Below are positions 1-64,000 of a stretch of DNA of 64,000 nt, piece by piece. Below the pieces are notes generated by a model. It made no database searches. It was not told the origin of the DNA and saw only the letters and a program-made list of their open reading frames with translations. Origin of the DNA: Raillietiella orientalis. Lineage: Eukaryota. The stretch's first letter is position 1. Every line of letters starts with the position of its first letter. The stretch spans positions 1 to 64,000 of the forward strand of contig JAYWIR010000147.1 of NCBI GenBank assembly GCA_036172245.1. The letters are read 5' to 3'. The position numbers and the translations under genes are program-made.

Positions 1-1624
1 ATGATGGTGGGGGCGTTTGTATTGCCGCCTCCTGTTCGGGAGGCGGCTGGTCGTTGTCCATCAGCGGTGGTGGCGTTTCGGCAACGACCGGAACGTCTGC
101 AGCCGGACTGAGGTCGATAGGAAGGACCGACCGGATGCTGTCCATGGAGGGATCCCGCGACCTCGCGGACATCGCCTCCTCGCTATCCGAGAGCATCTCG
201 TCCTCAGCCTGAGGGGGAGCGACGCGCATAGGGTTGCGCGACTTCCGGCCCGCCTTCCTCTTCGGGAGGGCTACGGTGGGAGGGTTCCCGGCTTCCGCCT
301 CGGACCGGAAGTTTCCGGGCCCTTCACTTCCGCCGGACGTCTGACCGCCTTCTTTGCATCCTTTGGCGTCTGCATTAAGGTGGCCGCGAGTTCCTCGCCG
401 CCTTCGCGAAGTTTTTCTCGTCGCTGCTGCTCGCGTGTTTGTCGCAGGATTCCTGCGGCGGTTCCGCGGCGTTCGCGACGGTTGCGGGAGTGGCGTTCGC
501 CGATCGACGCTCGATCGATGGAACGCGCTCGATTGTAACGCGGCATTCCTTTGTGGACTCGCGCGGCGAAATTTTTGGTTTGCCGACCGCGGGTTTTTTG
601 GGAACGCTCGCGTTCTGATTTGTATTACTATTATTTTTTTTTTGGAGTTTTTGTTTTTTTTGTGTTTCCTTTTTTTTTTTTTTTTCGACACGACTTTCCA
701 GTTTTCCTCGGCGGCAGTTGGCTCAGAAGTCTCCTTTTGAGGCTCCTGCTCCTTGTGCACGACTTCTTCTGAGGTCGGCTGTTGGTCGCTCGTTTTTTGG
801 TTTAATGCCTTCTTCCCCTCATTTGTCGAAGGGGCTGAAGGCGTTGTTGCGGCGTTTTTCGGGCACAAAGCACTAGTGTGGCCCTTCGCGCCGCAGGTTG
901 GGCATATGGCATCCGGGCATCTCTTCTTAAGATGCCCGAATGTGTTGCACAGCCCACAGTATTTTTCCTTCCTCACGTACCAGAGGTCGACGAGCTCGTC
1001 GTTGACTTCAAGCTTGTGGGGAAGTTCTATATTTTCGCGGAGAGTTACGCGTGCGGCCACTCGCCCACTGAATGCGCCTCGATAAGTAAAGGCGTTGGGC
1101 TTTGACCACATCGCGTATATCTCCGCGGATTTGTTGATTTCAGTGCGGATGGCTTCATCGGTCATCCGCACCTTTGTACCCGTGAGGTGGATCACCATAG
1201 AGTGATCCACCGTGTGTGGGAGGAGATTCCGCCCTTCGAACGGAACGGGCGTGCAGAGCAGTTTGTGTGTGAGCGCTGCATCTTTGCAGATCAGCTCCGC
1301 GAACTGCTTGCCGCTCCGAATCGAGAAGCAAAGAATCTCCTCGTCAGAGATTCCCATCCTACGGATGGCGTTTCCAAATTTCCGCGTTGTAAGCGGTGAA
1401 TAAAGATTTCCCACCTTGTAAAGGAGGGCTGGGTTGTAGCCCTCCTTTATGTAGGCCTGCACTTCGGCCGCCACGTCCGGCGGAGCCGCCGCGGCCACCT
1501 TGTTCCACGCCCTCGCCGGAGTGACGGGGGCTGATTTTCTGGTGGGGCATGACCCCACCTCCATAGGTTGGGGAGACGTGGGCCTCACGTCTCCCGTCGC
1601 AGGTACTGCGGCGTCTTCAGGCAT
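1..1624 (-). CDS. LINE ORF1 (gag-like, two CCHC zinc knuckles), apparently open to the window edge
   Basis: ATG at 1624 (MPEDAAVPAT..). Contains CGLCNTFGHLKKRC and CPTCGAKGHTSALC. The frame matches the C-terminal PPPS at positions 2-13, and the ORF track reports no stop in this frame. Confidence 0.75.
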   Translation of the reverse strand, partial: MPEDAAVPATGDVRPTSPQPMEVGSCPTRKSAPVTPARAWNKVAAAAPPDVAAEVQAYIKEGYNPALLYKVGNLYSPLTTRKFGNAIRRMGISDEEILCFSIRSGKQFAELICKDAALTHKLLCTPVPFEGRNLLPHTVDHSMVIHLTGTKVRMTDEAIRTEINKSAEIYAMWSKPNAFTYRGAFSGRVAARVTLRENIELPHKLEVNDELVDLWYVRKEKYCGLCNTFGHLKKRCPDAICPTCGAKGHTSALCPKNAATTPSAPSTNEGKKALNQKTSDQQPTSEEVVHKEQEPQKETSEPTAAEENWKVVSKKKKKRKHKKNKNSKKKIIVIQIRTRAFPKNPRSANQKFRRASPQRNAALQSSAFHRSSVDRRTPLPQPSRTPRNRRRNPATNTRAAATRKTSRRRRGTRGHLNADAKGCKEGGQTSGGSEGPGNFRSEAEAGNPPTVALPKRKAGRKSRNPMRVAPPQAEDEMLSDSEEAMSARSRDPSMDSIRSVLPIDLSPAADVPVVAETPPPLMDNDQPPPEQEAAIQTPPPS

Positions 1625-1735
1625 TTCTGCCTTCCAACGGCCTCCCTTCGAATCCACACAACACCTAGTTTTGGCTTCGCTCATGGGAGCTGACCAAAAA
1701 CGCGTGCGGCACCGGCGTAGGTTTGCCGCATTTTC
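1..1735 (-). mobile_element. L1/Tx1-type LINE, family E, 5' part (continues beyond left edge)
   Basis: Short 5' UTR plus ORF1 homologous to 32861-34465. The 5' end abuts family D ORF1 in the same orientation. Confidence 0.85.
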
Positions 1736-3201
1736 GGTGGAGGCCGGACTCCTCACTGCCTTTTTGCCAGCCTTGGAGGGGTCTGGCTGCAACGATGCAG
1801 CCAGCTCCTCCGCCGCACGCTCGAAGGCGGCGTCATCGATCACGGTCTCGATGACGGACGCTTCCGCCGGTTCGCTCCCCACGCTGCTGACATTTTCAAC
1901 AGTGGGCTGCTCGTCGGTAGCAGCGATTTCTACCTTGAGGCGTTCGGCGGTAACGCGTTGCCCAACGACGTAGCATTCTTTTAAATTCTCGCTAACCTGC
2001 TGTTTCTGATTTTGGTAGGCGAGCTTTTTTTCAATTCTTCGCTCTTTCTTCGACTTTCTTTTTCGCTGTGGCTTCTTGCCATTCCTGCACCTGACCGCTT
2101 TTGTGGATCTTTTCGGCATTCGTTGCCCGGGTGTCGGCTGCGGCCTGGACCACGGGTGTAGGTGGCACAGCTTGAGCGGCAGCCTTCGCAGCCAGCCTTT
2201 TCTGTGGCAGCCGCGCGCGTTTTTTTGTGGTTCCTCGCGGAAACCACGCGCACAGCGGATTCTGGGCACGCTTCCTTTGTGTGGCCTATTGTTTCGCATA
2301 CCTGGCACTGTACGTTGGGGCACCTTCTTTTGAGGTGTTCCGCAGTGTTGTAGGAACCACAGTATTTGGGCTTCCCCGCGTACCAGAGGTCGACGCTTTC
2401 TCCGCCGACCACCAGTTTTTAGGGAAGGGTAGAGTTCTCCCGAACGGTTACACAAGCAGCCGTGAGGCCGCACTGAACTGTGGTATAGTCCTCGAAAGGA
2501 CTAGGCTTGGTCCATACTGCATGGACCGTGCCTTTTTTTCCCAACGCGGCGCGTAATTGTTCTTTCCGCATCCGCGCGGTAACTCCTAAAAGGTGGACCA
2601 CCATACTTTGGTCCGCCGTAATGGGAAGGAGCCTGCGTGTATCCATCACAACGGGGTATTTAAGGAGTCTTTGGGCCAGCTCTGCTTGTTTGCGGGTGAC
2701 CTCAACGTACTGCCCCCCGCTAGGAATGGTCATAGCGCAGAGCTCCTCCTCTTTAACATCGAGAGCGCGCATCCCCTTCGAAAAGGCGCGCTCACTCTCA
2801 GAAGAATACAAATTTCCTACCTTGTAGAATAGTGATGGGTTATACCCCTCTTCTACATAGGCAGATAATTCCGCCGCGCCTGCAGGCGATGGCGCCCACA
2901 CGACGGCGCTCCACGCCCGCGCTGCAGCGGGGACCGGTTTTGTGGGTGCGGACGCCCCTACCTCCTTCGCCACTGAAGGTGACGTTGCCGCCGTCCCCTG
3001 GCACTTTAACTTTCCTAGAGGGGAAGTTGGCGCCGCCACCTGGCACTCCAGTTCTTCAGGAGGCAACGTTGCCACCGCCCGCTGACACGCACTGGTGGTC
3101 GTGTCAGGCATTGCCTGATCGGCCACCACCACACACGAAGCCTACACCTAGGGACGGTTCCCGGCACGAGGAGCACCGAGGAAACAGGTCCGCTCTAACC
3201 G
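1736..3201 (-). mobile_element. LINE family D, 5' part with disrupted ORF1 (ATG 3111)
   Basis: ORFs 2419..3132 and 1981..2412 are homologous to 40453-42114 and include zinc knuckles. Confidence 0.85.
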
Positions 3202-5400
3202 ACCTAAAGCTTCCGATTGCGTGAACCAAAAGCTGCTTCTTTAGCTTGTGGAACATCTGGGTGTCACGGCATCCCTGTTGGTGTACTTTCGCTCCTTTGG
3301 GCGTCGCACGATTAAATCCATAATTTTCCGGTTCTGTTGCGTGTATGGCGTGCCGGTACGGCGAGGAATTAGGCAGGGCGATAGCTTAAGCCCGCTGTTT
3401 TTTAGCATCTACTTTGAATTGGTGCTGGAGGCTTACAGGCTGACGCTAGCCAGCATGCCGTGCTAGTGTCCAGGCACGCCGGCCGTGGCAGCCTATGCCG
3501 ACTACCTCCTTTTTCTGTTGCCCATGTCAACCCCGGCGGCGGCGCTTGAAGATTTTTTTGAATTGATATGTCGTTGTGCGGGCGTAAGAGTAAACAGGAG
3601 CAAGTGCATGGTTGTTTCAGTGCAAGCGACGAGGGAAAGGCAATCTGGCAAGATTTGCCTGGGGATCCTTACGGACAGGTACCTCAGTTTACCTGTCTTG
3701 CCGTTGGGCGACTTTTGCATCTCAGAATCGTGGTTGGACTGACTTCCGAAGACACAGCGTGCACTTGGCACGTTCACAGGAACGGGCCAGCATCTGGAAC
3801 ACCTTCGTTGCCCCCCTCCTCCGCTTTCTGTTTTTTGTTTGTCCACCTCCCCAGGAAGTCGAAGTCTGGGCACAACGCCTTCTACGCAAAGCGTTGTGGG
3901 GCGCTGCAAGGTCCCGTGTTAGACTTAAAGACTTGGTGGCGCCGCGATAGGATGCCGGCTTTGGCATGGTAGACTCAAAAAGCATCCAGCCGCATGTGCA
4001 GTTTCGAATGCTGCGGCTCTGTGTCAAGCTGTGGTGTACGGCGTGGTGCTTATTTGCACGCCTCATACTAAGGCGCTGCACGGAAAGCGAGGGCCTGCTT
4101 TCGTTGCTGCCATAGTTTCGGCACACCAGAATAGGGTTTGGCTTCCCGCTCAGGCAGCTGTCCTCACTGCTGGATGCCCAATGTTGGAACTCCTGCCGCC
4201 CCATGAACAATAATGCATGGCGGCAGGAATCTTTTCATCGTAGGCAGCTTCCGAAGGAACGCGCCCGGAAGATCAGCGACGCCTGCGACTTCTTCTCAGT
4301 CAAATAATGGACTAAGTCATGCATGACAAGAAGCAGTAGGACCGTCTAGCCGTTACACCACTCGTTGCAGCGCTGTCTGCCCTCAGAGCAAGCGACGACA
4401 GTTGCCTACCGGCGAAATGGGAGTTCTCCTGCACAATAGCGGGAGTCAGTAAGCTCCTTGGGGGCTGGACGACATAGGAGCTGGTGGAAACTGCCAGTGC
4501 TCGTAATCGGGCGAAGGGCCTGCTTCAGTGGAGTGAACATTTAAGTGTACCCCCGAAGAGATAGTGGTTTCCTCCATTTGTTTGGACAGCTCCGTGTTCC
4601 CCTCAGAGTGGAAAAAAGATGTGCTGCTCTTTTTACACTGGGGCTTCCACTGTAATCGGCAGCGAAGCATTGTTTTCGGGGCAACTGCTCTGCTGAACTG
4701 TTTGAGGTGCGGGGATATCTAGTTTTTTCAGCATCTTCTGCTGAACTGCGGTGACCTCTGTGAACTGTGGCGAAGGCTTATTTCAGCCATCCTGCCGCAG
4801 GGAGGAACTGCGATTGATGTGCTGCTTCGCTTCTTTAGTAGGAATGGATTTTCGGTAGGCGCGTTTGTGACAACCATGTTTTGGCATTCGCGCCATCGTG
4901 AAGGCCCCCTGAGGCCTGGAGTTGTCAGCGCAGCGAAGGGAGTCTCACCGGTTTGCAGCAGAATCCATGGAATAGGCTGCTAGGTGGCCTCATCTTTGTG
5001 ACGAGGTCAAAGAGGACATCGCCGGCATCCACCGCCGGGTTACAGACTTTAAAGAACGGATTAACCCGGTGATCACTACGTCCTGAGGCCCACCCATACC
5101 CCTTACCCACTCGCTCTGCTAAACTGCCGGTGCCATTACTTTTATCCCAGTGCGATCCAGTGCGATCCCAAAGACCCTTATCCCGGCGTCCCCCATTAAT
5201 ATCTTTTTCTTTTGTTTTTCTTTGTTTGTGTTCCCAGTTCCCCCACACCGTTCTGTGTTATTCTGGCCTGCGTGCTAGCAATTTTCTCTTGATCCCCGTT
5301 CAGTCTTCGGTTGGGAGCATGCTTCTTAGTTGGTTTATTTTATATAATTGTTTTTGTTTATATTATATGAAATAAACTCCCCGGCGTGACCGGGAGAGAA
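3202..5400 (+). mobile_element. LINE 3' part (decayed RT from the KAFD motif, zf-RVT, 3' UTR, 3' terminal motif)
   Basis: GIRQGDSLSPLFF and AYADY motifs; AATAAACTCCCCGGCGTGACCGGGAGAGAA at 5371-5400. Confidence 0.85.
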
Positions 5401-7690
5401 ATCTCCTGGGAGTTCTCCGTGGTGATCACGTGGATCTCCTGTAGGAGCGCCAGGTCGAAGTCACGTAGGCTGGCGGCCGTTTCCCGCGTGTTGCCGTTGT
5501 CGCGCTGCCCGTTTATGTTCCAACAGACCACGCGTTATCGACAGCGACAGGCAAGCCCAGTTGTTATCTTTCGGAAAGTGACAATGCGGCGCCCGTCACC
5601 TGGTCGGGCGGGACGGATGGAAGAATGGGGCCTCCGCGCACCGGTTCTTTCTCCTCCATGGGAGCCGATTCCTCATCGGACCGCAACGGTTTAACGATAC
5701 GGGTCTCACGCACCTACTCCCCCTCTTTCATGGGGGCGAATCGTCGGCTTGGCCGGACGGCAGGTGGGAGAGGTGTTGAAGTCTCTGCTCCCCCTTCTCC
5801 ATAACTATCTTTTTTACAGCAGGACCCGGCGGTGGAAGGAGGAGGCAATGTCCTACCTGATCCCCTTTCTCCATGGGAGTCGCCAGCTGCTCGATAGTGG
5901 TGGGTGGGAAAATCCCTCCCTCCGTTTCCACGCTACCGGCTTCCCCCTCGGCTGCCGGTGCGTCTCCCTCCTTCTTCGTCGGCACGCGCCTCTTGGGACT
6001 CTTGGACTTCCGTCCAGTCTTCTTCGGAGGCGCCTCTGCGGAGGAAGACGCACTTCCGTCATCCGGATTCTGGTCATCTGTCGGTGGTGCCTTGTTCGCG
6101 GCCGGCCTTTTCAAAGCCTTTCGCGCGCCGTTCTCACGGTAGGCGAGATCGGTCGCGGGTTCTTCCGCCCCCTGCTCGAAGGCGGCGTCCTCTATTGAGG
6201 CGAGCGCGTCGCTCGGCTTCCCCTCAGTTTGCACAGAGGGTTCGTCTAACGTGATTGCTGCTTCGCCGGCAACGAGGCGGAGGATATCTCCCCCAATGGC
6301 GGTCTCGGAGACCTCCACGCTCTTCAAAGCGACCGAACATTCGCAGAGCATACGGCGGCGTTGCCTCCTATTTAATGGAGTTTTCGCGGGTTGCGCTGTC
6401 GGCTCTTCGGTTTTCCAAACGTTTTTGCTTTTCGGCTTCGCCGACCACCAGCCCTCGTTTTCACCAGCGTCGTCGGGAGTTTTCTCGACCGGCGTTCCCT
6501 AGGAGCCTTCGGGCACAAGCTTTTGGCTTTGCCGCTCTGTCGGCTCATTAGACTTTCGCGCTTTCTCCAAGCGCTTCCTTTTTCCTTTTTTCAAGGCAGA
6601 GTGCGCTGGAGGTTCCCACTTTGGTCACACTTTCCGATGATAACCCTTCTCCTCGCAGTGGAAATACTGTATGTGAGGGCACCGTTTTTTCAGGTGCCCT
6701 GCTGCATCACAGTGCGCACAGTACTTGGTCTTGCCCACGTACCAGACGTCGACGACCTCGTTGCCGACGTCGAGTTTGTGGGGCATCCCACCGTTTTCAT
6801 GCACGGTCACCCGCGCTGCAGCCATGCCACTGAACAGTTTTCCGTATGTTTGAAGATGTTCGGCTTGGTCCAGTGCGCGTGCACCGTACCATGTTTTTGC
6901 AACTCTTCCTGCACGCCAGCTTTGGTCATGCAAAAGTTTACACTGGTTAGGTGAGCAACAATGGAGCGATCCTCCGTTACAGGGAAGACCTTTCGGCCCT
7001 CCAGAGTGATGGAAGTGTTTAGCAGGCGCTGAGCCAGGCTTGCATCTTTGCAAGTCAGCTTCACCCGCTGGCCCCCACTCATCACGGAGAGACCTTCCAG
7101 TTCTTTTTCTTTTACATGCAGCCGCTGTAGCTTTCTTTTGAAATTTCGAGCGGTGTTCCCAACAAAAAGGTTGCCATACTTTCAAATCAAGGATGGTTTA
7201 TACCCTTGATACCGGTAAGCACACTGTTGGGCAATGGCTTTAATGGATGGTGCTGCAGCTACGGCGCTCCAGGTCTTCGTCGTTGCCGAGGAAGGATCCA
7301 AAGATGCGGTTGCCCTTTGTTTCTAAAAGGTTGTTGCTCCTTTTTCCGGTGTGGCGTTTGTCCTTGTATCCAAGAAAACGATTGCACTCTTTTGCACGGG
7401 GACAGTTGCTCGCTTTTTCAAGGGTGCGGTAGCCTTCGTTTCCAACGGGACGGTTGCCCCGTTTTTCAAGGGGGCGGTTGCCCTCGTCTACGTGGGGGCC
7501 GTTGCCCCAGCTCTATGAACTGGGGAGAGGAACAGGCATCTCCCCCTTCGATCTCCAACGCGGTGTTCTGTCATTTCTGACATTGGACACAGCAGATGCA
7601 CCACACACAAACACTAACGCAACGAAAGGCTTTACAACAGGCACAGAGGAGCGCGGAAAAAACACGTTTGCCCGCCAAGATGCTCGTTGC
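5401..7690 (-). mobile_element. LINE family A-like, 5' part (disrupted ORF1 and start of the APE endonuclease)
   Basis: ORFs 6625..7185 (CAHCDAAGHLKKRC) and 5728..6351; WNxNG..LLQEIH endonuclease motifs at 5401-5530. Confidence 0.85.
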
Positions 7691-7696
7691 CACGCT

Positions 7697-9061
7697 GTCA
7701 CGCCGGGGCGTTTATTATAAATTCTCTACATTGTGGTACAAAGCCTCACTAGGGCCAACTATAGAGGACCTGCGGGGTTGCCGGTACGCAGACTGTCGCG
7801 ACTCTCCTCGGCAGCGTAAGGGGATAATGGAAAAACAAAAAGAAAAATAAAACATGAAAAACAAAAAGATTTCGGAGGAATGGGAAGGGATCACCGTCCA
7901 CTGGGATTGGGGTCCATCCTTTGCAGGATGCCCTCGAGGTCCATCCGTATAATTCCCAGGTGGGGCCATCTGGTCGCAGTATGCAGGTAGCGGAGCGCAA
8001 GTACGACGGCATATTTGTCGTGGCTAGGTCTTCTGACGTCGCTCCAGCATGTCACCATCCCGCGGACGCTGCAAAGTGCAGCCAGGGCAGCGGCGGGTCG
8101 CAGGGCATCCTGCACGAACAGAAGCCAAAAAACGTCTCTTGGCTGGCTGCCCTCCTGGATCCGTAGGGAGGAACGAAGACGTTCCCACAGGGGTCGGGGG
8201 GCAGCACAATCAACAAGGAGGTGGGGGAGTGTTTCCCGCTCCCCACACCTAATGCAGGCCGGATCTACTCGACCCCTGGTCCAGTGGTGGCGGCGTTCTT
8301 TGCAGGGTTGGCCCCAATGCAACAGGAGAAGCGCTCACTCCTACCACTTTAGGGGGAGGGTCCTCGAACCAATGAAAACCGGGGGCCAATCCGGTCATCC
8401 GGCTACATGCCGAGCAGCTCGCCACATCTTGTAAGTCCTCTCGTCTGCACACTAGGAATAGTTGCTTCCGCCAGTTCCCCGATGGAACAGCCGCTCATGA
8501 ACTTCTCCTTGCCTGCAATGCGGCAGGAGACTTGCCACTTAGGCTGGCGGCTGCTGGAGAGCGCCCTTCTCCAGAATGGCATCGCCGTAGCTGGGGAATT
8601 GTCTCTGCCCACGTGCTTCTCGCGGGATACCGGAGTATCTTCCCCAGAGTGCTGCGGAAATAGGCGCCGCGTCGCAGGCACTTGCACATCTCTTCGTTTT
8701 TTTCATTGGTCTTCGCCCACATCCCAGCTGTCTCCTCCAGCCATGCAGAGGAGTTGGCGTGGCTGCACACCATCCAGCCGTTTTCCTTAGCCAGAGTTGC
8801 CATGCGTACCAGGAGAAGTCCGCATTTCTTGATCTCCGAGCCACGGCATAGAAGATGAGACGCGAGACCCTCCGTCCCGGATACCCTCACTTCTATGGGA
8901 GGAAGGGAGCAAGTCGCCTCTCCTCCTCCAATTTCCATCGCGGTGTCGTCAGGCATTTCTGACATGGGATGCCGGCGCTCCCACACACCAGACAAAACTA
9001 CGAACATCCTTTTTGCTAACTAGAGCGCGGTGCGATGACAAACCACGTCCGCTTCCTAGAA
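7697..9061 (-). mobile_element. Internally deleted or chimeric LINE: family A 5' end (about 8890-9061) fused to an ORF2 C-terminus and 3' end
   Basis: ORF 8495..9007 reads from the ORF1 N-terminus (MSEMPDDTAMEIGG) into post-RT ORF2 sequence. zf motif CIRCGERETLPHLL. Truncated 3' motif at 7697-7716. Confidence 0.75.
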
Positions 9062-9075
9062 GGACACGGGGAAGT

Positions 9076-10956
9076 TCTCACCTAGTCACGCCGGGGCGTT
9101 TAATAATAAACACTGTACATTTTCCGTGCTAGGCCCCGCTAAGTCCAATATTTCATAGGACGAGTCAGAAAGCTGGTTCACTGACCGGCTTGATTCTCCT
9201 CTGCAGCGGAGGGGCTAGGGGCTAAAGCAACAAGTTAAATGAATGAAACAAAGAAAAAGAAACATTTTTCAAAAGCCAGGAAGGGATTACAGCCCGATGC
9301 TGGAAAACAGGATTTTCCAGGATTCCCACGAGTTTTCTCGTCATGGCTTATAGATGGAACCAGCCGATCGCAATTCGCAGGTAGCGACCAGCGTGATCGA
9401 TGAAGTCCATATCCCTTCTTCCTCTGTTGGCTGTGCTTAACCCAGCTACAATCCCTCAGAGTCAGCAGTGCGCTGCCAGGGTTGATGCTGGTTGCAGGCC
9501 GTCTCGCACGAAGTGGAGTCTCACAACTTCTGTGGGGTTACTGCCAAACGGTATCCGGAGGGTCGTAGCAAAACGTTCCCACAGGGTCCGGAGGGCAGCG
9601 CAGTACAGTTACAGGTGGGGGAAGGATTCCTTCTCCCCGCGCACTGTACAGTTCTCTCCCACGTTCCTCAACGTCCACTGGTGGCGGCGCGCGTTGCAGG
9701 GAAGCCCTCAGTGCAACAACAGGAGAGCAGTTTCCTGCCACTTTAGGGGGAGGGTGGTTGCGTGTCTAAATCACAAAGGCCACTTTAGGTCATCCAGTGA
9801 AATGCCAAGCATCTCGCCCATCACTGGATTCCGAGCGGGAGAACGCTTGGAGTCGCGGCGTCAGCCAGTTCCCTCATGGTCCACCCACTTCTCCTTGCCC
9901 GCTATCCGGCAGATAACTTCCCTCCTCGGTTTCCGGCCGCTATGAAGCGTCATTCTCAGAAAGGGCAGCGCCGTGGTCAGTAGGATCGTCTCCTCCCGCG
10001 TGCTTCTAGAGGGACCCCCGATCATGTTCCGCAGCTTACCGTCGATGTAGATGCCGGTACAAAGGCGTTTGCAAGATTCTTCAATAGGCTGCATTAACTT
10101 AGCTCACGAGCCAACTGTTTCTTCCATCCATGCGCTGGAGATGGCGCAGCTGCAGGCCATCCACCCGTTCTCTTTTGCCAAGATGGTCATGCGTCCCGGA
10201 GAAAGCCGCATTTTCTGCTTTTCCGGCTGGAGCACAGAAGAGACGTTAGTCCTTCAGTACGGGACAAACGTCTGGCAATGAGGTGGGTCAGAACGCACCA
10301 AAGGATGCTCCACATTTTTGCTGCGATGGCGAGGGTGTGCCATCGCAGCTGTTTTGTTACGCGATCTTGCGTCAGGACGCTAAAATCTACGTCCCGACGG
10401 GGAGCTCAGAAATCCTCCATAAGCACAAGAGGCCTTCCACCGCCGCACAGAAGGATGCGCAGGAGGTTTTTTGTTCTCTTTTTCATCTCATGGGTTACGA
10501 GCAAACAAAAGCAGGGAGCGATTCAAGGGGACGGGAAACGCGTTCCACACCGCTGCCCATTCCTGCAAGTAGAACTTGCCTTCCAGGAACAGGCCGATCG
10601 CCGACTCCACTTTCTGGAGACGACCTGATCAGGCTTCTGACTGGCAGAATTCGTCCACTGGAACGCCGAAGTACTTCAAGTACCTCTTCTTGGATATCCA
10701 CAAGCGGAACCAATGAGATCATCCTGCCCACGTTGCACCAACCGTAACCAGCGGCGGATTCGCCCTGTTCGTCCGTAGTCCTGTACCGCGGTTCAGCAAG
10801 TCGAAAAAATCCTTGACTGCCAAAGCCGAGTCTGACATGCCTAGCAGGAGCAGAGGATCGTCAGTATACGCCGACACGGCCAGCGCACCTGGGCACGAGC
10901 TTGGTAGTGCAGCCAATGTCAGCCTGTATGCTCTCAACAGCAATTCGAAATAGGTG
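9076..10956 (-). mobile_element. 5'-truncated LINE 3' part (RT C-terminus, zf-RVT, 3' end)
   Basis: AYTDD motif, CTVRGEKESFPHL, 3' motif at 9076-9103. Confidence 0.85.
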
Positions 10957-12514
10957 GCAGCAGGCTCCTAAGCTGCTCATGTTCTGGAACGTGGTAGAGA
11001 CGGTGGCGCTACCACCTTTTCAATGTTCTTAGTATCACAGGAAATAGGCTCTTTCTTGTACCCGAATGGGGAAACGCTGTGGAAGCAACTTTGTTCAAAA
11101 CTTACGAATGCATGCATGCAAACGTGAATGGCCCGAGGGACACGCAGAAAGCCACAAGGTCACTATAATCAAGTTTCAAAACCTCTCCCAGAGGAAGGCA
11201 GCCTCATAAAACCACATCACGTCATTTTGCGTTCAGAGGTTGCAGACATATCCACCAAACAGCGCCGATCTGGGGCATTGGAGATAAGGAAATGTCGGCA
11301 ACAACCGCGTGATTTTAAGTGAGCTACGGCCGTATCATCTTCACGGACGCAATAATACTACGATTTTGAACATCCACGTTCTCGGGAAGGAAATGTTGTA
11401 GACAGAACACCCAGAAGTACTCTTGTAAACCCAAGAGTAGAGGTCCTACTCTAGAACGAAGATGCATGCCAGTCATACGACGTTGCTTTCTTCGACTTCC
11501 GAGGATGACTCACGTGCAGCCCGAACGCACCCCGATTTGGTGCTTTCTCCTCTACCTCGCCTACATCGGCTGCACTCCCTTCCCAGAAAGGAGGCGAATC
11601 CACTTACTGACTCCATGCATGCGCCTGATTTCTGTAGAACTCTTGAGCGCCCCCGTGTGCCTAACGCGCTCAGCTCCTCCACCACAATAGCACTCTGGGG
11701 ACGTCAGCTGCATGGCAAGAGTGCGACCGCTAGTCGCACTCATGCGTCAGTCATCGGCGAACCCCCTTCTTCCCGGATACCACAGCGCATCGTCACCACC
11801 GTCTTGCCTCCTGGCGAACTCTTTGCTCCCTTTGCGTCGAGATCAGCACTTAGGGCATCAGCAAACCTAGTTCGCGCCCTCACCTCCCACGCGTGTCCTC
11901 GTGACACGAAACCGGAGATGCGTCACCCTACTGCCTGCCAGGAAAGATTCGGTGCCTAGCGAGCGCATCCCCTGACACCTGAATGAGCAATCCCCAGCGT
12001 AGGGAGACAGCGGATTGCGCTCGCTTTCGCCTCTGGCAGGGTGGACGCAAGACTCGAAACGCTCGCCCGGTGGATGTCTATAAAAAGTCCACTCGGCGCG
12101 CATGCCGCATTACCGTCGGCAGTTCACCTAATCGGTCGTGCGATCTCCTCAGCTGCGGGTTATGCAACTGCTTCAGCGGCTCGCTTCCTTACGAGGAGGA
12201 GGCAAACTGGAAAGCAAGTGATCGTAGCAAACACGCGCAACCAGGTGGTAACGTTTTCAATGTGTGTGCGGCACTTTCACTGAAACCACGTTTTTTCGCA
12301 CCCAGTTTCGAGTTTCGTTGCCATAGCGAGGTCACGATTGTTGGCCTTTCCGAGCGTGTAGCCTCCTCTACCTAGGCCGTTTTTTGGCCCCATTTTTGGC
12401 CGCTCCCAAGACGGAAACACAAATCCTTGAGTGCAAAGACTTGTCTTCTTGCGTACATGCCCCTCGGAGTTCGCGTTCATCGCCTAGATCTCGCCCTCAG
12501 GCCTCAAGGTCGTG

Positions 12515-14379: not shown

Positions 14380-14716
14380 TCTCAGCTACCGGAAGGTTGT
14401 TTCTCTCAGAGCCGCTACCGGGAGGACCACGGCGCTCGCGGCCGGTGCTGCGGCTTCACCCGATTCAACTTCCTGGTCACAGTAGCGCGGAGCTGGGCAG
14501 AGTTGTCTGTTACGTTTCATATATTTTTGAATTGGCGCGGCGACGCGCGTACGGACGTCCAAGGATGGAATCCCGGTCGGTAGTCGGTGTCTTGGGAAAT
14601 TTCTGCCAAGAGACACCGACGATGTTCCACGCAATCACACTAACGCCAAGAAAAAGAAACTTCCAGAACGGGAAAGCTCGTAGCGCAGGAAAAACACGTC
14701 CTCGGCGGTTCGGCGT
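14380..14716 (-). mobile_element. Decayed LINE 5' end
   Basis: GGACGTGTTTTT 5' motif and a degenerate ORF1 start context (GGCAGAAAT..GACACCG). Confidence 0.5.
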
Positions 14717-23035: not shown

Positions 23036-23075
23036 GCGAGCGCAAGAGATCGAAACGATCGCGGGGGGACGGTTG

Positions 23076-40359: not shown

Positions 40360-40369
40360 GCTCTAGGGC

Positions 40370-42114: not shown

Positions 42115-42128
42115 TCTTCCCAGCAGTA

Positions 42129-45892: not shown

Positions 45893-45923
45893 AATAAACG
45901 CCCCGGCGAAATCCGGGTGAAAA
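45893..45923 (+). terminator. Conserved LINE 3' terminus: AATAAA, GC-rich hairpin, short A tail (representative copy)
   Basis: AATAAACGCCCCGGCGAAATCCGGGTGAAAA. Variants occur at 14 element 3' ends. Confidence 0.7.
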
Positions 45924-46045
45924 TCGAATGCTTTGTGCAAATTGACCGCGACGGCAAAGGCTCCCTACGAGTCCGTCCTTTCTTCTGCATGATGTTCTTG
46001 GTCAGAGGGGAGCGCGAGGCTCCCTTGACCATCCTGAGCAACGCT
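45924..46045 (-). mobile_element. RT fragment, right half of the host split by the family D insertion
   Basis: Reads GALAVAVNLHKAFD on the minus strand. Confidence 0.75.
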
Positions 46046-49542: not shown

Positions 49543-51512
49543 CAGCCGACCCCCCGCGATCGTCTCTATTTCCTGGGCGTCTCCCGCGGTGATAACGTGG
49601 ATCTCCTGCAGCAGGGCCAGGTCGAAGTCACGCAGGGTGCCGGCCGTATCTCGTCTGTTGCCGTCGTCGCGCAGCCCGTTTACGTTCCAACTGGCCACGC
49701 GGATCCTAGGGCGACAGGCGAGCCCAGGTTTTATTCCTGGGAAATTGGTTCTGCAGCGTCCGCCACCTGTTAGGGCGGGACGATAGGTGGAGGGGGAGGG
49801 TCAGGTGCTGGAGGCACCTGGTCCCCCTCTTCCATGGGTAACGGCGCGTCAGCCGGTTCACCCTTAGGTGGGGTCGTGCCTCCCTGTTCTCCCTGCTCCA
49901 TGAGCATGGCCTGCTCGACGGCTTCCGTACGTGGGAATTTCAACTCCTGGTTTCTCACGCTGGCGTCAGCTTCCGGCTTCTCGTCCTCGCTCGTGGAGGG
50001 GAGGCGCCTCCTCGGTTTTTGGGACTTCCGTCCCGTCTTCCGGGTGGGTGCCTTTGAGGAGTGGGATGCACTTCCGGCCCCCAGGTCGTACACACTTTCG
50101 GGGTCCTTCTTGGGCGGAGCAGCCCTGCGCACTGCATTGCGTGAGGGGTTCTCACGCACGCCCAGAGTGACCGCGAGCTCCTCCGCTGCCTTCCCGAAGG
50201 CGGCGTCCTCGCCGTCGGAGTGCGCGTCGCCCGGCTCACCCTCTGTTTACACAGTGGGTTCGTCGTCCCGAACCTCGGGCGCGGCGGAAACGGCGAGGGG
50301 AGGCTCGTCGCCCCGGGTGGCAACCTCAGGAACGCTTACGCGATTCAGTGCTACCGAGCACTCCTGGAGTTTTTTTGACAGCCGCGCGGCTTTATTCTTT
50401 TTGCTGGCCGTGTTCGTTTTCTCCGTTTTCTTTAGTGGTTCTTTCACCACTTGTTCCTCCTTCCTGGCCTTTATCAGTTGCCTTCCCTCTTCCACTCCCG
50501 CGTCTTCCGCGGTTTCATCCAATGACGCCTGGGTGAGAGGAAGAGGAGATGGCGGCTCGGGCCGGCCAGTTTCTCGCTTAGGTCTTTTGACCTTGTTGAT
50601 TTTTTTGGCCTGCGCCTTTTTGGCAGCAGGTGGCAACGGGGTAGGGCGTTTAGGGCACACACGACGCACGTGTCCCTTAACCCCGCACAAGTGGCACTCA
50701 ATGTTCGGGCAACGCTTGCGCAAGTGCCCTACTGCATTGCAGTAGTCACAATAGCGGGGTTTCCCCACGTACCAGAGGTCGACGGATTCTTTCGCGACTT
50801 CCAGTTTGTGAGGCAACCTAGCACTTTCATTGACAGTGACATGCGCTGCAGCCTGGCCTCCAAAATGGCTAGAAAGCCTTCGAAGATGGTGGGCTTTGGC
50901 CATAACGCGTGTACATCTCCGTATTTCATCAATTCGTAATTCACCGCCGAGCGCGTCATCCGATTTGTGATTCCGGTTAGATGGACCACTACGAAGCGGT
51001 CCATGATAACCGGTAGGATTTTCCGGCCATCCACATTCAGCGGGGTGTTCATCAGGCGCTGTGCTAAGGCTACATCTTTGCAGACGACCTCCACGCGCTG
51101 CCCCTCGCTGAGTACGGCGAGGCCGTCAAGATCCTCTTCTCTTACAGGAACGTCCTGTAGTGCCTTACTGAAGGCTTGGGCGGTGCGACCATCAAACAGG
51201 GGTCCTATTTTGAAAACCAGAGATGGTGTTATATCCTGATGCCCTGTAAGCCGCTTGCTCCGCCTAGGTTTCCGCGCTCGGCGCGGCCACCATGGTGCTC
51301 CACTTCCTCGGCGTTGGCGAAGATGATTCCGAAACGGATGCCCCTTATCCAGTAAGCCGTCGGGAAGGACTATCCTTTCTCACGCCTACCTTTATCGTGG
51401 TGTCCTCTGGCAGCGATGCCATCGGACACCAACGATGTGAAAAAACACACACTTTCCAAGAAGAAACCGCTTCCCGGTACTTGTTGACGGAGAAACCGAA
51501 AAACACGTCCTT
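49543..51512 (-). mobile_element. LINE family G, 5' part: disrupted ORF1 (51422 to 49731) and start of the endonuclease
   Basis: CDYCNAVGHLRKRC and CHLCGVKGHVRRVC; WNVNGL..LLQEIH. Confidence 0.88.
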
Positions 51513-52110
51513 CCGTAACGAAAGGGCGTATTTGCACGCCCATCGTTTTTCGAGGACCCCTGACATCCGTCGCTTGACAGAGTACAAAGCCGAGGCCGAG
51601 CGTCAAGCCTGGCAATCCAAGCCGCCCAGCGTGCTGGACGACCTACACCAGGAATACTCGGACCCGGCATGGATACGTCGCTTCGTGCGTTAATTTTACT
51701 TCTCCCTTCACGCCAGGGTACCTGCGGAGTGGGACGTGTCGCGGAGCTTTCTCCCAAATGGAGCCTTGGCCATAGGGAAGGGAGAGAAAGAAAGCTTCGA
51801 CGAGCCTTTTACGACCGGAGAAATCATCACCGCTATTAAAAAGCTTAAGAGGCGTAAGGCGCCAGGGTAGGACGGCCTGCCGGCGGAGTTCTTAAAGAGC
51901 TTCGCGTCAGATCTGACCCCCCTGGTGCTCCAATTGACACGGCTGATACGAAACGAAGGCGATGTTCCCGCCTCGTTTTGGTAAGCCAGAGTGAGGCTCC
52001 GTCCTAAGGGAGGAGACCTTAGGAAATTGAGCAACTAACGTTCGATCACGATTGTGAACACGGACGCCAAGTTGCTGGCTGGACTGTGGGCTGCGCGGCT
52101 GGGACAGATG
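51513..52110 (+). mobile_element. ORF2 linker and RT N-terminal fragment
   Basis: RNERAYL..AERQAWQS..KAPG..TIVNTDAK. Confidence 0.75.
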
Positions 52111-52142
52111 GAATTCCCGGTGCGCATCAAGCCCATTTTGTG

Positions 52143-53582
52143 TTAAAGCTCTAGCCAGGTGGAAGAGTGGAACAGGTTCGCCTCTCTTCTCCGCCTCGGA
52201 ACAGCATACGTCTTTTCCGGGCTGATGGACGCGTTTGCAACCCGTTCCAAGCGCTCAGCCCAAACCTTAGCTATCAACGTGGCATCCGCATTCACTATTG
52301 TGATGAAACGCCAGTTGTTCATGCCCCTCAGATATCCTTCCTTAGGGAGAAGCCGCACCTTTGCCGAACGAAACGAGGCGAGAACGTCACCTGTATCGCG
52401 TATCAGCAAGGTGAGTTGATGTACCAGGGGGGTAAGCTCAGCCGCGAAAGTCTGATAAAACTCCGCGGACAGGCCGTCCTCCCGTGGAGCCTTTCGTCTC
52501 TTGAGCTTTCCGATGGCCGAGATGATCTCGCCCATCGTAAAAGACTCGTCGAGGGACTTTTTCTCCTCTTCCCCGATCGCAGGAGCGCCTTCCGGAAGCA
52601 GGATTCGTGAGAAATCCCGCTCGGAAGGCGTTCTTGCGTACAGGGAGGAGTAAAAACGCCGCAGCAAACCGCGGATCTGAGCGGGTGCCGAATGCTCCTG
52701 GCCCTGATCGCCCAGCAAGCTGGCCGATCCTGACTGCCAGGCTTGCCTCTCGGCACCCGCTTTGTATTCCGCCAGCCTGCAAATGTCGGGGGTCCTGGCG
52801 TAACGACGAGCCTGCAGATAGGCTCGTTCGTTACGTACCCAGTCCCCAAATCCCGAAGGTAGGCGGTGCTGAGGGAACTGGTCGCAGAACTTCTGGACCG
52901 ACCGTTTGAAACGATCCCAATCCTGAAGTGTCTGCATCCTAAAGCTCCGTATAAACGTGCGGAGATGTTCCATCGCGTCCGGGAGCTTCAGCCAGTCCCT
53001 TGGCAAACGCCACGCTGACGAGAGGGGGCCCCTGTCGCGCGGATGGATTTCAATCACGATTGGTCGATGGTCGGACAACTCGCACGGCACCTTGCAGCGC
53101 CTGCCCACACGAGTGCACAGGTGCTTCTCAAGGAACACGTGATCGACGTTCTTCTCCATCCCTGGTACACTGGCCAACAAATTACAAGTGTGCACCGCCG
53201 CGCACACCTCGTTGACCAGGTCCCGCTCGTGATTCGGCCATCCGGTTTCAGACGAACGTTGAAATCGCCTGCAACCAGATGAGCATTCCGCACGCCTGCC
53301 TTGGTCAACCAGTCGCGATGGAAGGCAAGGACAAATTCTTTCCTGGCCCTCCTGTTCGTCAGGTCCGCTCCGCTCGGGGCGTACACGTTCATAACGATCA
53401 GGTCGATCGAGTCGGGCCAGCTGAGAGTCAGCTGGCCGACACGACCGTGATCGTTGCACCGCACGCCCCGAGCCGCGGCCTCGACGGCTGGCCGAAGCAG
53501 GTAGGCGACACCGCAACTTTTCGCTATCTGACTTCTGTACCATAGCCGCCCTCCGGAGATGCGTTCGATCTCCTGCGCTCGT
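52143..53582 (-). mobile_element. Family D-like ORF2 fragment (endonuclease to RT N-terminus)
   Basis: ORFs 53054..53464 and 52143..53543 closely match 42285-43720. Confidence 0.85.
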
Positions 53583-54940
53583 ACAGTGCAGAGGTGTTCA
53601 CGCGTCTATCAGCGTTAACGATCGGGCATCTTTGTGCCTGTGTTTTCGCTCGCACTTGTATATTCTAGTGCAATCTGCAAAGTAGCATAGTGCTACAAGT
53701 CCAGTACACAGGAGAGTGTGAAGGAGCAAGCCACTGGATGCACTTCAACTGTACTTGAAGTGGCCGCATCTTCCGTAATGGTTTCCTCACCCCCGATAAG
53801 GAGTTACGCCGCCGTTACCTCCCAAAGACCAGAACCCTGCGATGCGGAGTTCCAGGCATATGTGTCATCTGGAAACATGCCTGCACTCCGTTATAAGATC
53901 AGTGGGCCCCTTAACGGGAGGATCAAGCGTGAGCTCAATGATGAGCTCGTCCGGATTGGCGTTCGCGAGGAGGAACTCCTTGCCATAATGCCTGCTGGCA
54001 GGATGGAATATACGAAGATTCGGTGCAAGAACGCAGCATTCGTGCAGCGCCTTCTCCGTACGCCGTTGACCATCAATTGCAAGGTAGTCCTTCCTACCGC
54101 GATGGAAGACTCTTTTCTCGTTCAATTGTGCGACATCGAACCGGAAATCTCCGACCGCGATGTCGTAAGCGTGCTGCCGATGTTCGCCACCGTGCACGCC
54201 CTGTGGAGGAGGCCGAACCCTTCGAAAGATTTCTCCTTTCTCCACATCGGACAAGCCTCCGCGCGGATCACCGTCGCCAACAGGCGTGTTGTGCCTGAGC
54301 AGCTGCAGGTGAACGGCACGGTCGTTCACCTGTGTTTCATAGGTTAGACTCGCGCGTGAGTGCAGTGCGGCAATGATGAGCACCTAATCAAAGGGTGCCC
54401 ATCTCCGAGATGCCGCTATTGCAAAGATTCCGGGCACGAAATGAAAAAGTGCCCTGTACTTGCAAGAAAAGCAGCCGAAGCGGAAATTCGTCGGGTTCAA
54501 GAGACCACTGCACCAAAAGCCGCAGTGGCAAATAAAAAACGTCGTCCGCAGAAACTCGGAAAAAGCCACGAGCGATCCGCGGATAAAAAGAAAGCATCCC
54601 CGCCCGCAATGCCTAGAAAGGGGAAAGTCACGGCGGGGAAGCCAATTAAAAAGGGGCGCGTGGGTTTGCCGCGTGCCGTGCCCTCCCTCGCTGCCAAACT
54701 TGCAGGCACCTTTCCGAGCCAGGAACCAGCAAATCTCCGTAACACCCTGGAGGGAAAGGTAGGCAAACAGGATGATCGCAACAGTGCGAAGACTTCTTGC
54801 TTCGTTCCGTTGTCCCTTCGGAGTTCCGGACAGCCCCACTGCAGCGCAGGCCCCTCTGCAAAGGCTACGAAATCCGTAAAAAGCAGCGTTGCGACAAGGA
54901 AAACACACTGCGTGCAGGCGCCTCATCGCCCACTCGGCAG
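53583..54940 (+). mobile_element. LINE family C, 5' part with disrupted ORF1
   Basis: ORFs 53718..54347 and 54360..54959; knuckle CRYCKDSGHEMKKC. Confidence 0.82.
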
Positions 54941-61221: not shown

Positions 61222-62357
61222 CCCAACCAACTCAGAGTAGGTGCTGAAGCCCAGGGGACTGAAGCTATCTCCCTGCCTATGCGGCGCCGTACCGGCACAC
61301 CATACACCTTGTGACCGCTGAAAGAGACGGTAATCATCGAATTTCGCGAGCAAGAGCGCAGGTAGGAAATCAGGGAGGGTGGCAAGCCTATGCGACCCAG
61401 GAGCTCCAAGAAGAGTTCCTGGTTCTACACAGTCGAACGCCTTGTAGAGATCGACTGCGAGCGCTAAGGTCTCCTTTCCCGCCCGGGGGTCCCTTCCCAG
61501 CCCGGCTGGCGGCACCAATGTGGGTTTGCCGACTATCCCTATCCCTTTCTTCTTTCTTCTTTGCAGGTGCACCCATGTGCTTGCGAGGAAGAGGTTGGCA
61601 TCCATTCTTCGCCCGGCAACAGCATAAGTCTGCTCCGTGCTAATTACGGATTCTGCCACCTGCCCCAGACGCGAAGCGCATAGCCCTGCTATCTGCTTGG
61701 CGTCCGTATTCACCATCGTGATCGGACGCCAGTGCTTTAAATCCTTGAGATTTCCCCCTTTCGGAAAGAGCCTCACTCTGGCTGACCGAAACGTGGCGGG
61801 AACAACGCCTTCGTCACGGATCACCCTGATCAACTTAAGCAGCAGGGGTGCCAGCTCTTCCGCCTAGCTCTGAAAAAACTCCGCGGGCAAGCCGTCTTCC
61901 CCTGGAGCTTTCCACCTCTTGATCCTTTTGATACCGTCGAGAGTTTCGCCGGTGGTAAAAGGCTCAACGAGGCTTTCGATCTCCTCCTCCCCTATTGCAG
62001 GGGCGCCATCCGGAATCAAGCGTCCAGAGTCGTTTCGATCCAAGAGCTCCCTGGCGTAAAGGGAGAAATAGAAACTCCGCATGAGATGCCGTACCGACGC
62101 CGGGAACCAACATTCCCGGCCCTGGTCGCCGAGCAAGCTGGCCGACCCGGATTGCCAGGCTTGGCGTTCGGCCCCGGCTCGGTACTCGGCCAGGCGACGG
62201 ACATTAGGGGTTCTCTCGTAATTACAAGCCTGTGAATAGGCCCGATGGTTGCAAGGACCCTCGCCGAATTTGGGGGGCAGGCGGTCCAGGGGGAAGTGCT
62301 TGCAGAACTCCCGGACTGATTCCTTAAAAAGGTCCCAGTCCTGGAGATTCCGGAGCG
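61222..62357 (-). mobile_element. ORF2 fragment (linker to RT core)
   Basis: LQDWD, KAPGEDG, WRPITMVNTDAK and DLYKAFD motifs. Confidence 0.85.
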
Positions 62358-64000
62358 TCGAGCGGACGTGTCTTTTCAAGGCTCCTGAGTTTCATTTCCG
62401 TTGGTGCTTTTGCGTGGTGTGGGTTGAGGATTAGGCAGAAATGCCTGATACCACCACCGGTGAAGATCCGGGGGCGATGACCTCATTACCCCGGAGCAGA
62501 TGGAGGTGTAGGCTTCCGCATCAGTGGAGGCTCCCGCCAGCACGGATGCGCCCCCGGCCTTACTCAGAGCTTGGATCGCCGTGGCTGCGGAACCTATGCC
62601 AGAGGCTATGGCGGAAATGCGCGCTTACCTGGAGGAGGGGTATAACCCACCCCTTCTATATAAGGTAGGCGGTCTATATTCTCCCGAGAACGCGCGCGCC
62701 TTCTCACAGGCGATGCGCGTTCTCGGCGTACAGAAAGAGGAGCTTCTGGCTATGTCCGTCAGAAGCGGGGGTCAATTTGTGGAAGTTATCTGCAAGGAGG
62801 CAACTCTTGCGCAGAGACTTCTGCGAACCCCCGTAAGTATGGGCAGCCGGAGGCTTCTCCCAATAACTGAAGACCGGTCGGTGATCATTCACCTGACCGG
62901 TATCACGTTCCGGATGACGAAGGAGGCCGTCCGGAACGAATTAGAAAAATTTGCAACTGTCCACGCGCTGTGGGTCAAGCCTACTCCTTTTGTCGATTAC
63001 GACGGGGTGCTTGGCGGCTGGGTGCAGCGCGAGTGACGGTTCGCGAAGGATGTGAGTTACCCCACAAACTCACTGTCAACGGTGAATCCGTTGACGTGTG
63101 GTACGTGGGGGAACCCAAGTTTTGCGGCTGCTGCAGCAGCTTCGGTCACCTTAAAATGAGGTGTCCGAGCGTGCAGTGCCGGCAATGCAAGCAAGCGAGG
63201 CACATCCGTCTGCTGTGTCCACAAAACATAGTCTGCGCCGTGTCCGCAAAAAACGCGAGAAAGCACGCGGCTAAAAAAAGAAAGAAGCTGGCAGCTCGTA
63301 CTGCTGCTAAGGAGGTCACCTCCGCCTCCAAGGCGAAAGCCAGCCCCGAGGCCTTGGCGAAAAAAGTCGAAAAGGTCGAGGGCGAGGGTCAAGAGCCAGG
63401 GTGGCAGAAGGTCGACCCCAAGAAAAACTCCCATAAGAAGGGAAAGAACCTGGCAAAACAAAGCGAAACCGCTCCGCGATGCGATAAAACCAAAAGCTCT
63501 GCGTCTTCGTAAAGCAGATTCCCGCCATCGACGAATGCGGCGCTAAAGAACTCGCTGCTGTCCCTGCTCTACCCTATGTTGACAAAGTCAACAAGGAGGG
63601 GAGCGAGGCGGCGGCGTCCGTCATCGAGCCCACGCTCGATGATGTCGCCTTCGAGCGCGCCGCGGAAGAACTGGCTGCCTCGTTGCAGCCGGTTGCCCCC
63701 AAGGCTGGCAAGAAGGCCGTCAGTCGTCCGGCTTCCCCTCAGGAGTCGGCCACTTCCGACCCCGAGGTGAAGGCCGGAAACACAGCATCCATCTCCGCGG
63801 CACCCCGCAGAAAGGCAGGACGAAAGTCCACAATGCCCCGGAAGATCGTCTCCCCCGACGAAGGGGAAGAGATGGCTTCCGGCTGCGAGGGTGCGATGAG
63901 CGTAAGAAACTCCCTGGACCAGTCGCCCGAGAGAATTTCACGCTCGGACACGGAGGGGATGAAGGGAATGGAGGCCGAACAGGTACCTCAGGCGCCTGAA
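62358..64000 (+). mobile_element. Family D-related LINE, 5' part; ORF1 from ATG 62441 with frameshifts, runs off the right edge
   Basis: ORFs 62524..63036 and 62970..63512 with CGCCSSFGHLKMRC; GGACGTGTCTTTT 5' motif. Confidence 0.85.

Follow-up and report, generated by a model that had tools for sequence, protein, structure and literature searches.

Several families of sequence-specific long interspersed nuclear elements (LINEs) with an endonuclease of the apurinic/apyrimidinic endonuclease (APE) type probably insert into one another, each family at a nucleotide of its own, in a 64,000-nt stretch of Raillietiella orientalis DNA (assembly GCA_036172245.1, contig JAYWIR010000147.1, positions 1 to 64,000, forward strand). 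This stretch is called the window here, and all counts and tests were drawn from it. Within it the ends of the elements, the sites that they hit, the target-site duplications (TSDs), the independence of the hits and the association of family with site are shown. An earlier note, made from the letters alone, had proposed that sibling LINE families target particular conserved coding motifs inside other LINEs, mostly in antisense, and use them as safe harbours. We confirmed the observation itself, and the interpretation as a whole is partly supported.

The window is almost wholly a nested mosaic of diverged L1/Tx1-type LINE copies, whose families are referred to below as the guild. Its GC content is 51-61%, stop-ridden fragments of open reading frames (ORFs) with the Pfam domains Exo_endo_phos, RVT_1, zf-RVT and zf-CCHC are found throughout, and comparison of the window with itself returns dozens of LINE fragments in both orientations, 64-95% identical, with alignment ends that return repeatedly to identical coordinates. 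According to Pfam, zf-CCHC is located in ORF1, and the APE-type endonuclease (EN) and the reverse transcriptase (RT) in ORF2; the EN domain structurally matches L1 EN and ExoIII. The coordinate reference for mapped flanks was E40 (40372-45923, +), a full-length, frameshifted X-family LINE of 5.55 kb with Pfam EN and RT domains, which is collinear from the 5' untranslated region (UTR) through a CCHC ORF1, the APE endonuclease, the RT and a zinc-binding C-terminus to the 3' end. Its frame starts at 40357, and coordinates 1-15 are the TSD.

Element ends and their clustering

All guild elements have a common 3' module, AATAAA-N2-CCCCGGC-N4-6-CCGGG-TGAAAA, without poly-A. A profile built from eight such ends detected 14 in the window (13 strong and 1 weak), all with TGAAAA-like tails of at most 4 A. 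At the other end, a profile of the 5' motif (..GGACGTGTTTTT..GCTCC) found 15 ends, and pairwise comparison of sister copies added four more (1614-, 27679-, 32860+ and 53594+; a sign after a coordinate gives the strand). For junction mapping, the 120-130 nt outside each end were aligned to E40 and the alignments were then read. The flanks of the 14 3' ends and 15 5' ends proved to be clustered, which bears out the earlier claim that element ends recur at the same nucleotide in diverged hosts. The 21 antisense junctions form 28 pairs within 15 nt of each other, compared with 1.16 on average, and never more than 8, when junctions were placed at random 20000 times, and when both ends of one insert are collapsed, the resulting 18 events still give 19 pairs versus 0.85 expected. 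The recurrence of junctions is far beyond chance. Automatic detection of inserts by split alignment was also tried and was discarded, as it is confounded by nesting.

Antisense target sites

At the RT motif xKAFD (target sequence GCACAAGGCGTTCGA), which is part of the catalytic RT motif, there are four junctions, the number counted earlier: the 5' ends 3196-, 19396+ and 40372+ fall at one nucleotide and are joined by the 3' end of E40 at 45923. A copy at 47463 that may have entered the earlier count is intact through KAFD, with its joint 40-110 nt upstream, and does not lie at that nucleotide. E40 is bounded by a 15-bp TSD (40357-40371 and 45924-45938; TCGAACGCCTTGTGC / TCGAATGCTTTGTGC, 13/15 identical), and its host RT is found on both sides, downstream of KAFD as H40a (40129-40371, -) and, resuming after E40, as the upstream part H40b (45924-~46364, -). 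The other two X-family inserts are 5' parts, namely X19 (19396-20776, +), antisense in H19 and broken at ~1400 by the element c20, and X3 (1737-3196, -), antisense in H3. Both hosts extend from KAFD to a 3' end: that of H3 (3206-5400, +) lies antisense right after the AQEI codons of the host LINE G5 (5401-7676, -; 5' end to EN AQEI), and that of H19 (17318-19390, -), a GGRL-family LINE, lies at GGRL of Y15/G17.

The earlier note had placed five junctions at the zf-RVT motif WTxGSV (GGACACRRGGAAGTGT; TSD 13 bp); the clustering holds, and the count is six, made up of the 5' ends 15331+, 35342+, 38412+ and 9059-, the 3' end 9075-, and c31 at 32180/32181. Three of the inserts are W-family elements: Y15/G17 (15331-17317, +), which extends from its 5' end in h15 to GGRL; Y35 (35342-37809, +), with its 5' end in h35 and broken at ~2660 by the element N; and Y38 (38412-40107, +), a 5' part in N. 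The hosts h15 (14716-15330, -; WTxGS to 3' end) and h35 (34731-35341, -) are 3' terminal pieces of ~600 nt, and the 3' end of h35 lies antisense in G34 at E40 ~2026. F6 (9075-10958, -) has its 3' end at WTxGS, and Y9 (8878-9059, -), a W-type 5' UTR, has its 5' end after a 13-nt host remnant between the two (9060-9074, the reverse complement of GGACACGGGGAAG), indicating that the site was struck twice in tandem. Another member of the F6 family, c31 (30828-32180, -; 76-79% identity to F6), is 5'-truncated at E40 ~4197, and its junction with the host, c32 (32181-32859, +), nevertheless falls to the nucleotide on the WTxGS position.

The EN domain contains two sites, each with three junctions as previously counted. 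At GGRL (GGGGGNCGGYTGT) all three are 3' ends (17318-, 23077- and 49541+). Besides H19 they belong to H23 (23077-24555, -), a GGRL-family 3' part at GGRL of G23, which is itself a 37-bp host remnant (23040-23076), and to H'' (47424-49541, +), a GGRL-family LINE that is uninterrupted at KAFD and ends at GGRL of the 5' part of N. The junctions at AQEI, whose codons include the Glu equivalent to that of the catalytic QE(T) motif in L1 endonuclease, are the 3' end of H3 (5400+) and the 5' ends of Y23 (23037-) and Y53 (53594+), and they overlap by 11-12 bp. Y23 (21824-23037, -) lies antisense at AQEI of G23, and its sister Y53 (53594-54795, +) lies at AQEI of c53 (52110-53593, -).

At ~2660 the 3' end 37799- and the 5' end 51517- are both antisense, and since their flanks overlap by ~12-13 decayed bp, the 13.7-kb span between them (37799-51517, -) was taken as one element, N, inside Y35, with a 3' part at 37799-38398 (= h38) and a 5' part at 49542-51517. 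We infer that both parts belong to one element, antisense in Y35 at ~2660, and that Y35 resumes at 51505-52110. N carries nests of its own, Y38 at WTxGS and H'' at GGRL. Single antisense junctions map to E40 ~2026, ~2560 and ~3430; that at ~2560 is the 5' end of c62 (62357-64000, +) in c61 (61226-62356, -).

The TSD of 14-15 bp reported earlier is exact only at KAFD (15 bp), WTxGS having 13 bp and AQEI, ~2660 and ~1400 about 11-13 bp. The proposal that the targets are the most constrained motifs fails where it can be measured, though the test had little power: four of nine sites had enough aligned copies, and none of the four is exceptional, their nucleotide conservation standing at the 60th percentile for AQEI, the 77th for GGRL, the 29th for ~2560 and the 14th for ~2660, while at the other five, which include KAFD and WTxGS, too few copies were aligned.

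Sense sites, orientation and joints

In total we counted 21 antisense junctions, ~5-7 sense junctions and four head-to-tail joints of a 3' end with a 5' end, close to the ~19 antisense and ~5 sense junctions given earlier. Two sense junctions fall at ~1400 with a TSD of ~12-13 bp (CCTCCAAGGCYRG): the 3' end of T (26505-27001, -), in sense at E40 ~1394 of c26 (24556-26497, -), and the 5' end of c20 (20776-~21640, +) in X19. The others are at ~1443 and 2483, with two or three more in 5' UTRs. The strand bias seen by the earlier note does not stand, because junction counts are pseudo-replicated by site; counted per site, 8 antisense against 3-6 sense is not compelling.

In the head-to-tail joints, 0-14 nt separate a 3' end from the 5' end that comes next on the same strand. 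At 27679, 30828, 7687, 14716 and 32859 we also observed one LINE running, 0-14 nt past its 3' end, into a second LINE of like orientation, either at the 5' end or at an internal point of the latter. The 9075 joint is a TSD remnant between tandem hits, and template jumping is possible for the remaining 3'-end joints.

The 5' UTRs of different families (40372-40480, 19396-19500, 62357-62450 and 1615-1705) have the motif GGACGTGTTTTT..GCTCC in common and, ~80-100 nt downstream of it, a small hairpin, AGGCAnnnnTGCCT. The 5' ends of F1 (1614) and c46 (47348) lie 15-25 nt past such a hairpin of another element, a position that hints at yet another target, in sense. The youngest pair in the window (27002-27679 and 46672-47348, 95% identity) begins at an identical 5' nucleotide (AACGGCGGA..); one member directly follows the 3' end of another LINE, and the other follows a 76-nt piece (47349-47424) with a hairpin of the 5'UTR type, TAGGCA..TGCCTA.

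Association of family with site and reciprocal nesting

The association of family with site that the earlier note had suggested is borne out by a tree that was built on the initial ~1250 nt of 15 elements. The KAFD inserters (X3, X19, E40), the WTxGS inserters (Y15, Y35, Y38) and the AQEI inserters (Y23, Y53) each form a clade with 100/100 support, and the rule holds for all eight elements with a 5' junction at one of these sites. Site labels require 2 changes on this tree, the fewest possible, a value reached by 2 of 200 sets of shuffled labels. The GGRL inserters H19, H23 and H'' are 74-91% identical over the last 400 nt and 75-91% over the last 1400 nt, versus 58-67% to all other elements.

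The families also insert into one another, as had been claimed. X-family elements lie in an AQEI-type host (H3), a GGRL-type host (H19) and H40, and the GGRL family has as hosts the W-family copy Y15/G17 and N. The nesting is reciprocal, as a W copy lies in N and N lies in the W-family copy Y35. The corresponding motif of the W family itself, WT(L/F)(R/G)NV (TGGACGTTSRGGAACGTG), and that of the H family, RVSGGV, differ from the WTxGS target GGACACRRGGAAGTGT. Two to four copies bear on this point, and they suggest that the families may not carry their own target.

Independence of the insertions

The WTxGS host tree covered the ~600 nt that separate the site from the 3' end and comprised four hit and nine unhit copies. 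In this tree c32 groups with the unhit c29 (100/99), h15 with h35 (100/99), and h38 stands separately; a single clade of the four hit hosts is rejected by the approximately unbiased (AU) test (p-AU 6.9e-10). At KAFD, H19 groups with the unhit H'' to the exclusion of H3 (100/100). H3 and H19 as a clade are rejected on 2.1 kb (p-AU 2.5e-4) and H3, H19 and H40 as a clade on 210 nt (p-AU 7.8e-4), H40 grouping with the unhit c29 and E40. At GGRL, the test of G17 and N as a clade gave p-AU 4.5e-4 against all seven other copies, three of which have no determined site status. The AU tests thus reject, as a general cause and with a marginal result at GGRL, what the earlier note had named as the finding that would overturn it, namely single events copied by segmental duplication.

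The sites in the EN domain can be read in another way. G23 is hit at both AQEI and GGRL, which are 24 bp apart there, c53 only at AQEI, G17 and N only at GGRL, and four copies at neither; it follows that AQEI or GGRL, if not both, was struck more than once. Inserts also tend to be more alike than their hosts: Y35 and Y38 are 84% identical versus 70% for h35 and h38, X19 and E40 85% versus 72% for H19 and H40, and X3 and X19 75% versus 62% for their hosts. The 3' ends of the hosts lie at different targets, that of H3 at AQEI, H19 at GGRL, h35 at ~2026 and h38 at ~2659, with that of h15 beside another 5' end. When the insert tree was compared with the host tree for congruence in the W family, p-AU was 0.42, with the insert topology unresolved. 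By our count, the minimum number of independent events is 2-3 at KAFD, at least 3 at WTxGS (plus the tandem pair F6/Y9), 2-3 at GGRL, 2 at AQEI and 2 at ~1400.

Proposed mechanism and alternative explanations

Exact 3' junctions, 5' junctions 11-15 bp away even in a truncated copy, and fixed orientation together indicate target-primed reverse transcription by sequence-specific APE-type LINEs. In the mechanism that we propose, a LINE-only island would grow as at least six related LINE families with an APE endonuclease retrotransposed repeatedly, in nested fashion, each by target-primed reverse transcription at a fixed sequence of its own in the ORFs or the inter-ORF region of fellow LINEs. The endonuclease of a family would nick one strand at a defined phosphodiester within an asymmetric recognition sequence of ~13-18 bp, for example GCACAAGGCGTTCGA (xKAFD), GGACACRRGGAAGTGT (WTxGSV), GGGGGNCGGYTGT (GGRL) or the QEI codons. 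Synthesis of cDNA would begin on the 3' end of the element, with its AATAAA, GC-rich motif and TGAAAA tail and no poly-A, and a second nick 11-15 bp off would give the TSD. Insertions would build up in LINE islands and disrupt the host copy. On this proposal, orientation would be fixed at each site because the recognition sequence is asymmetric, and insertions would gather in LINE islands because the targets exist only in LINEs. No complementarity of the 3' tails to the targets was seen by eye, which makes the endonuclease, or else a different DNA-binding part of the ORF2 protein, the probable determinant. Endonuclease specificity and a genome-wide restriction of the targets to LINEs are what we infer from this pattern.

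The alternative that survives best is regional or homology-assisted targeting, in which ribonucleoproteins would be drawn to LINE chromatin, such as a centromere, or would form R-loops on homologous LINE DNA. In the R-loop variant, an exposed sense strand nicked at preferred spots would also give antisense inserts, and 21 junctions are antisense; algal Zepp/ZeppL elements are described, in the available parts of the sources, as targeting existing copies and centromeres (PMC8226300, PMC3446292), and with no visible tail-target complementarity another guide is conceivable. However, the junctions are exact to the nucleotide and specific to the family, unlike a loose regional preference, sense sites are present (~1400, ~1443 and 2483), and the split of orientation per site is only 8 versus 3-6. 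We therefore regard this explanation as unlikely.

Composite masters are less probable still, that is, host LINEs already carrying an antisense insert that retrotransposed as units and spread ready-made junctions. A three-level order of G, H and X does recur at 1.7-7.7, 15.3-20.8 and 46.4-51.5 kb, and the sister hosts h15 and h35 diverge about as much as their inserts. The monophyly of host parts that such masters predict is rejected, though, E40 and N are each inserted at full length in a host and flanked by a TSD of their own, an RNA of >11 kb would be needed, and H3 and H19 are different families (66-69% identity) at different targets with X at the same nucleotide.

Least probable of all, by a little, is that each junction arose once by nesting and was then multiplied by segmental duplication or higher-order repeat amplification, leaving copies identical by descent: alignments do cross junctions (19176-20776 versus 40141-41756 at 82%, 14857-17013 versus 37942-40107 at 73%), Y23 and Y53 with their host piece are similarly identical on both sides and h15 and h35 are sisters, but this is rejected as a general cause, and may hold for Y23/Y53 and perhaps h15/h35, because hit hosts are not one clade at WTxGS and KAFD (marginally at GGRL), identity shifts by a step of 8-14 points across the junction, the 3' ends of the hosts themselves lie at different targets (H3 AQEI, H19 GGRL, h35 ~2026, h38 ~2659), c31 is 5'-truncated at the same WTxGS site, and second-level inserts are unlike between copies. 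Twin priming (5' inversion) was considered for the antisense joints between X and H elements and was rejected because E40 is complete, with its own 3' end and TSD.

Several observations weigh against insertion by site-specific LINE families. All of the evidence comes from a single 64-kb window. All guild copies are frameshifted, and the longest guild ORF has 484 aa. An RT-alignment scan of metagenomes returned only one distant locus, L001 (43% over 44 aa, GC 63%). At GGRL, the comparison with only the four known-unhit copies gave a marginal p-AU of 0.043. Y23 and Y53, together with a 33-bp host piece, are ~75-77% alike on both sides and have the same internal stop, so that they may be one event later duplicated, and h15|Y15 and h35|Y35 could be copies of one composite, as the hosts are sisters and divergence is alike (73% versus 76%). 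RNAalifold predicted a 3' hairpin of 6 pairs, one of which shows a compensatory change; its energy is -0.22, and with support this weak we claim no structure there. The 3' end of c31 adjoins c29 at E40 2483, in sense and without a remnant, which is non-canonical for the F6/c31 family. Three 3' ends lie within 0-2 nt of another element, which simple nesting does not yield; these could be template jumps or tandem hits. Finally, five convergent internal-internal joints, at which the 3'-side breaks of (+) and (-) fragments meet (40107/40129, 52110, ~21640-21824, 54795 and 61226), cannot be produced by nested target-primed reverse transcription. They may stem from later deletions.

Recombination between inverted copies was considered for the convergent joints and was rejected on logic, as it leaves no strand switch inside the repeat. 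A 1.3-kb inverted repeat (51514-52835, 67% identity) is centred on the joint at 52110. Same-strand internal deletions are present at 24555/24556, 27001/27002 and ~46364.

Other elements of the window and relatives

The most complete element of the window is D (54938-~61070, -), a distant LINE with 24-39% aa identity to the guild, an ORF1 with two CCHC knuckles, an APE EN and an RT. Its 3' end, AAATAAA..CCCC..GGGGAAAAC, is comparable to the guild ends, and ~27 nt beyond it lies a short 5'UTR-like piece (54905-54795). The segment 10959-14704 (~3.7 kb) has a lower GC content and no similarity to the LINE copies or to other window DNA, and it may represent a passenger that is not autonomous, or else a family far removed from the others. 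On the minus strand it starts, at 14704, with the LINE 5' motif GGACGTGTTTTTCC.

Among named proteins, the nearest are LINE RTs from ticks, frogs, fish, plants and fungi, with 24-30% identity. The sole close relative is P0012, an intact RT ORF of 619 aa on a 2.9-kb metagenome contig of the Joint Genome Institute (JGI), which is 68% identical to the window copy c53 and closely resembles E40 around DLRKAFD. Because this ORF is intact, live relatives of the group probably exist in the environmental sample. A sea-turtle protein, P0011, was set aside, as its high score is a sum over four ~32%-identical repeats.

Possible significance

Known site-specific LINEs persist in safe harbours provided by multicopy RNA genes or telomeres. 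In the window that role would fall to the coding sequence of other LINEs, in which several families use different exact sites and do so reciprocally. Judged from one window, partitioning of targets among the families, a safe harbour and escape of a family's own copies from its target are plausible, and any benefit would be putative. If the system is genome-wide, it would offer a naturally occurring series of related APE endonucleases that differ in their 13-18-bp specificity, a resource for work on the evolution of LINE targeting and for retargeting; a tractable case of transposon competition and hyperparasitism; and a concrete renewal mechanism for LINE-only islands such as algal Zepp-type centromeres. 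A further possibility, which we hold to be doubtful, is a closed community in which retrotransposons are obligate parasites of one another, with endonucleases that cut sibling coding sequence altered in their own copies. If it exists, such a community of mutual parasites would drive arms races of target escape and retargeting among LINEs and would build self-renewing LINE-only islands that the host could use, for example, as centromeres.

Comparison with known systems

Zepp has poly(A) tails, whereas the window elements end in TGAAAA. Clusters of the Zepp/ZeppL type are centromeric, one to a chromosome. The L1-type LINEs Zepp and ZeppL of green algae (Coccomyxa, Chlorella, Chlamydomonas) are described, in the parts of the sources consulted, as inserting in a nested manner onto existing copies (PMC8226300, PMC3446292), and the window likewise is a LINE-only island of nested clusters of its own kind. 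As far as these parts go, the algal elements form tandem 3'-end arrays of one family per species with no defined intra-element nucleotide, unlike the exact sites of many families in the window, and no intra-element target site was found in the accessible portions of the Chlamydomonas v6, CENH3 and Chlorella centromere papers. Subtelomeric arrays of own copies are also formed by the LINE Cnl1 of Cryptococcus (bioRxiv 10.1101/2021.08.11.455996, in part). Cnl1 is a single, telomere-associated family with no multi-family site system described in the available part of that source, in contrast to the multi-family window. In the full-text literature, a scope outside which the supplements, Higashiyama 1997 and Yamamoto 2003 fell, we found no case of several families with their own sites inside LINE coding sequence.

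In the window, independent insertions at the same nucleotide, fixed orientation and TSDs of 11-15 bp occur together, the combination by which site-specific LINEs are recognised. The Tx1 and R1 clades contain APE-type LINEs with sequence specificity, among them Tx1L, Keno, Mutsu, Dewa, R1 and TRAS/SART. The window elements resemble them in having an APE endonuclease and an RT, and in that insertions fall at one nucleotide of a target present in many copies, keep a fixed orientation and make short TSDs. According to the consulted part of one source, target-specific non-LTR (long terminal repeat) elements belong mainly to early-branching, Tx1 and R1 groups, and their targets are rRNA, snRNA and tRNA genes, spliced-leader exons, microsatellites, telomeres and 'transposons' (PMC4640811); sequence-specific nicking is documented for the R1Bm EN in the part seen of another (PMC1919474). 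In place of the RNA genes, microsatellites, telomeres or DNA transposon hit by those LINEs, the window elements have the coding sequence of sibling LINEs as their targets, and at least six families hit at least six sites at one locus and hit one another reciprocally. The likeness is one of behaviour.

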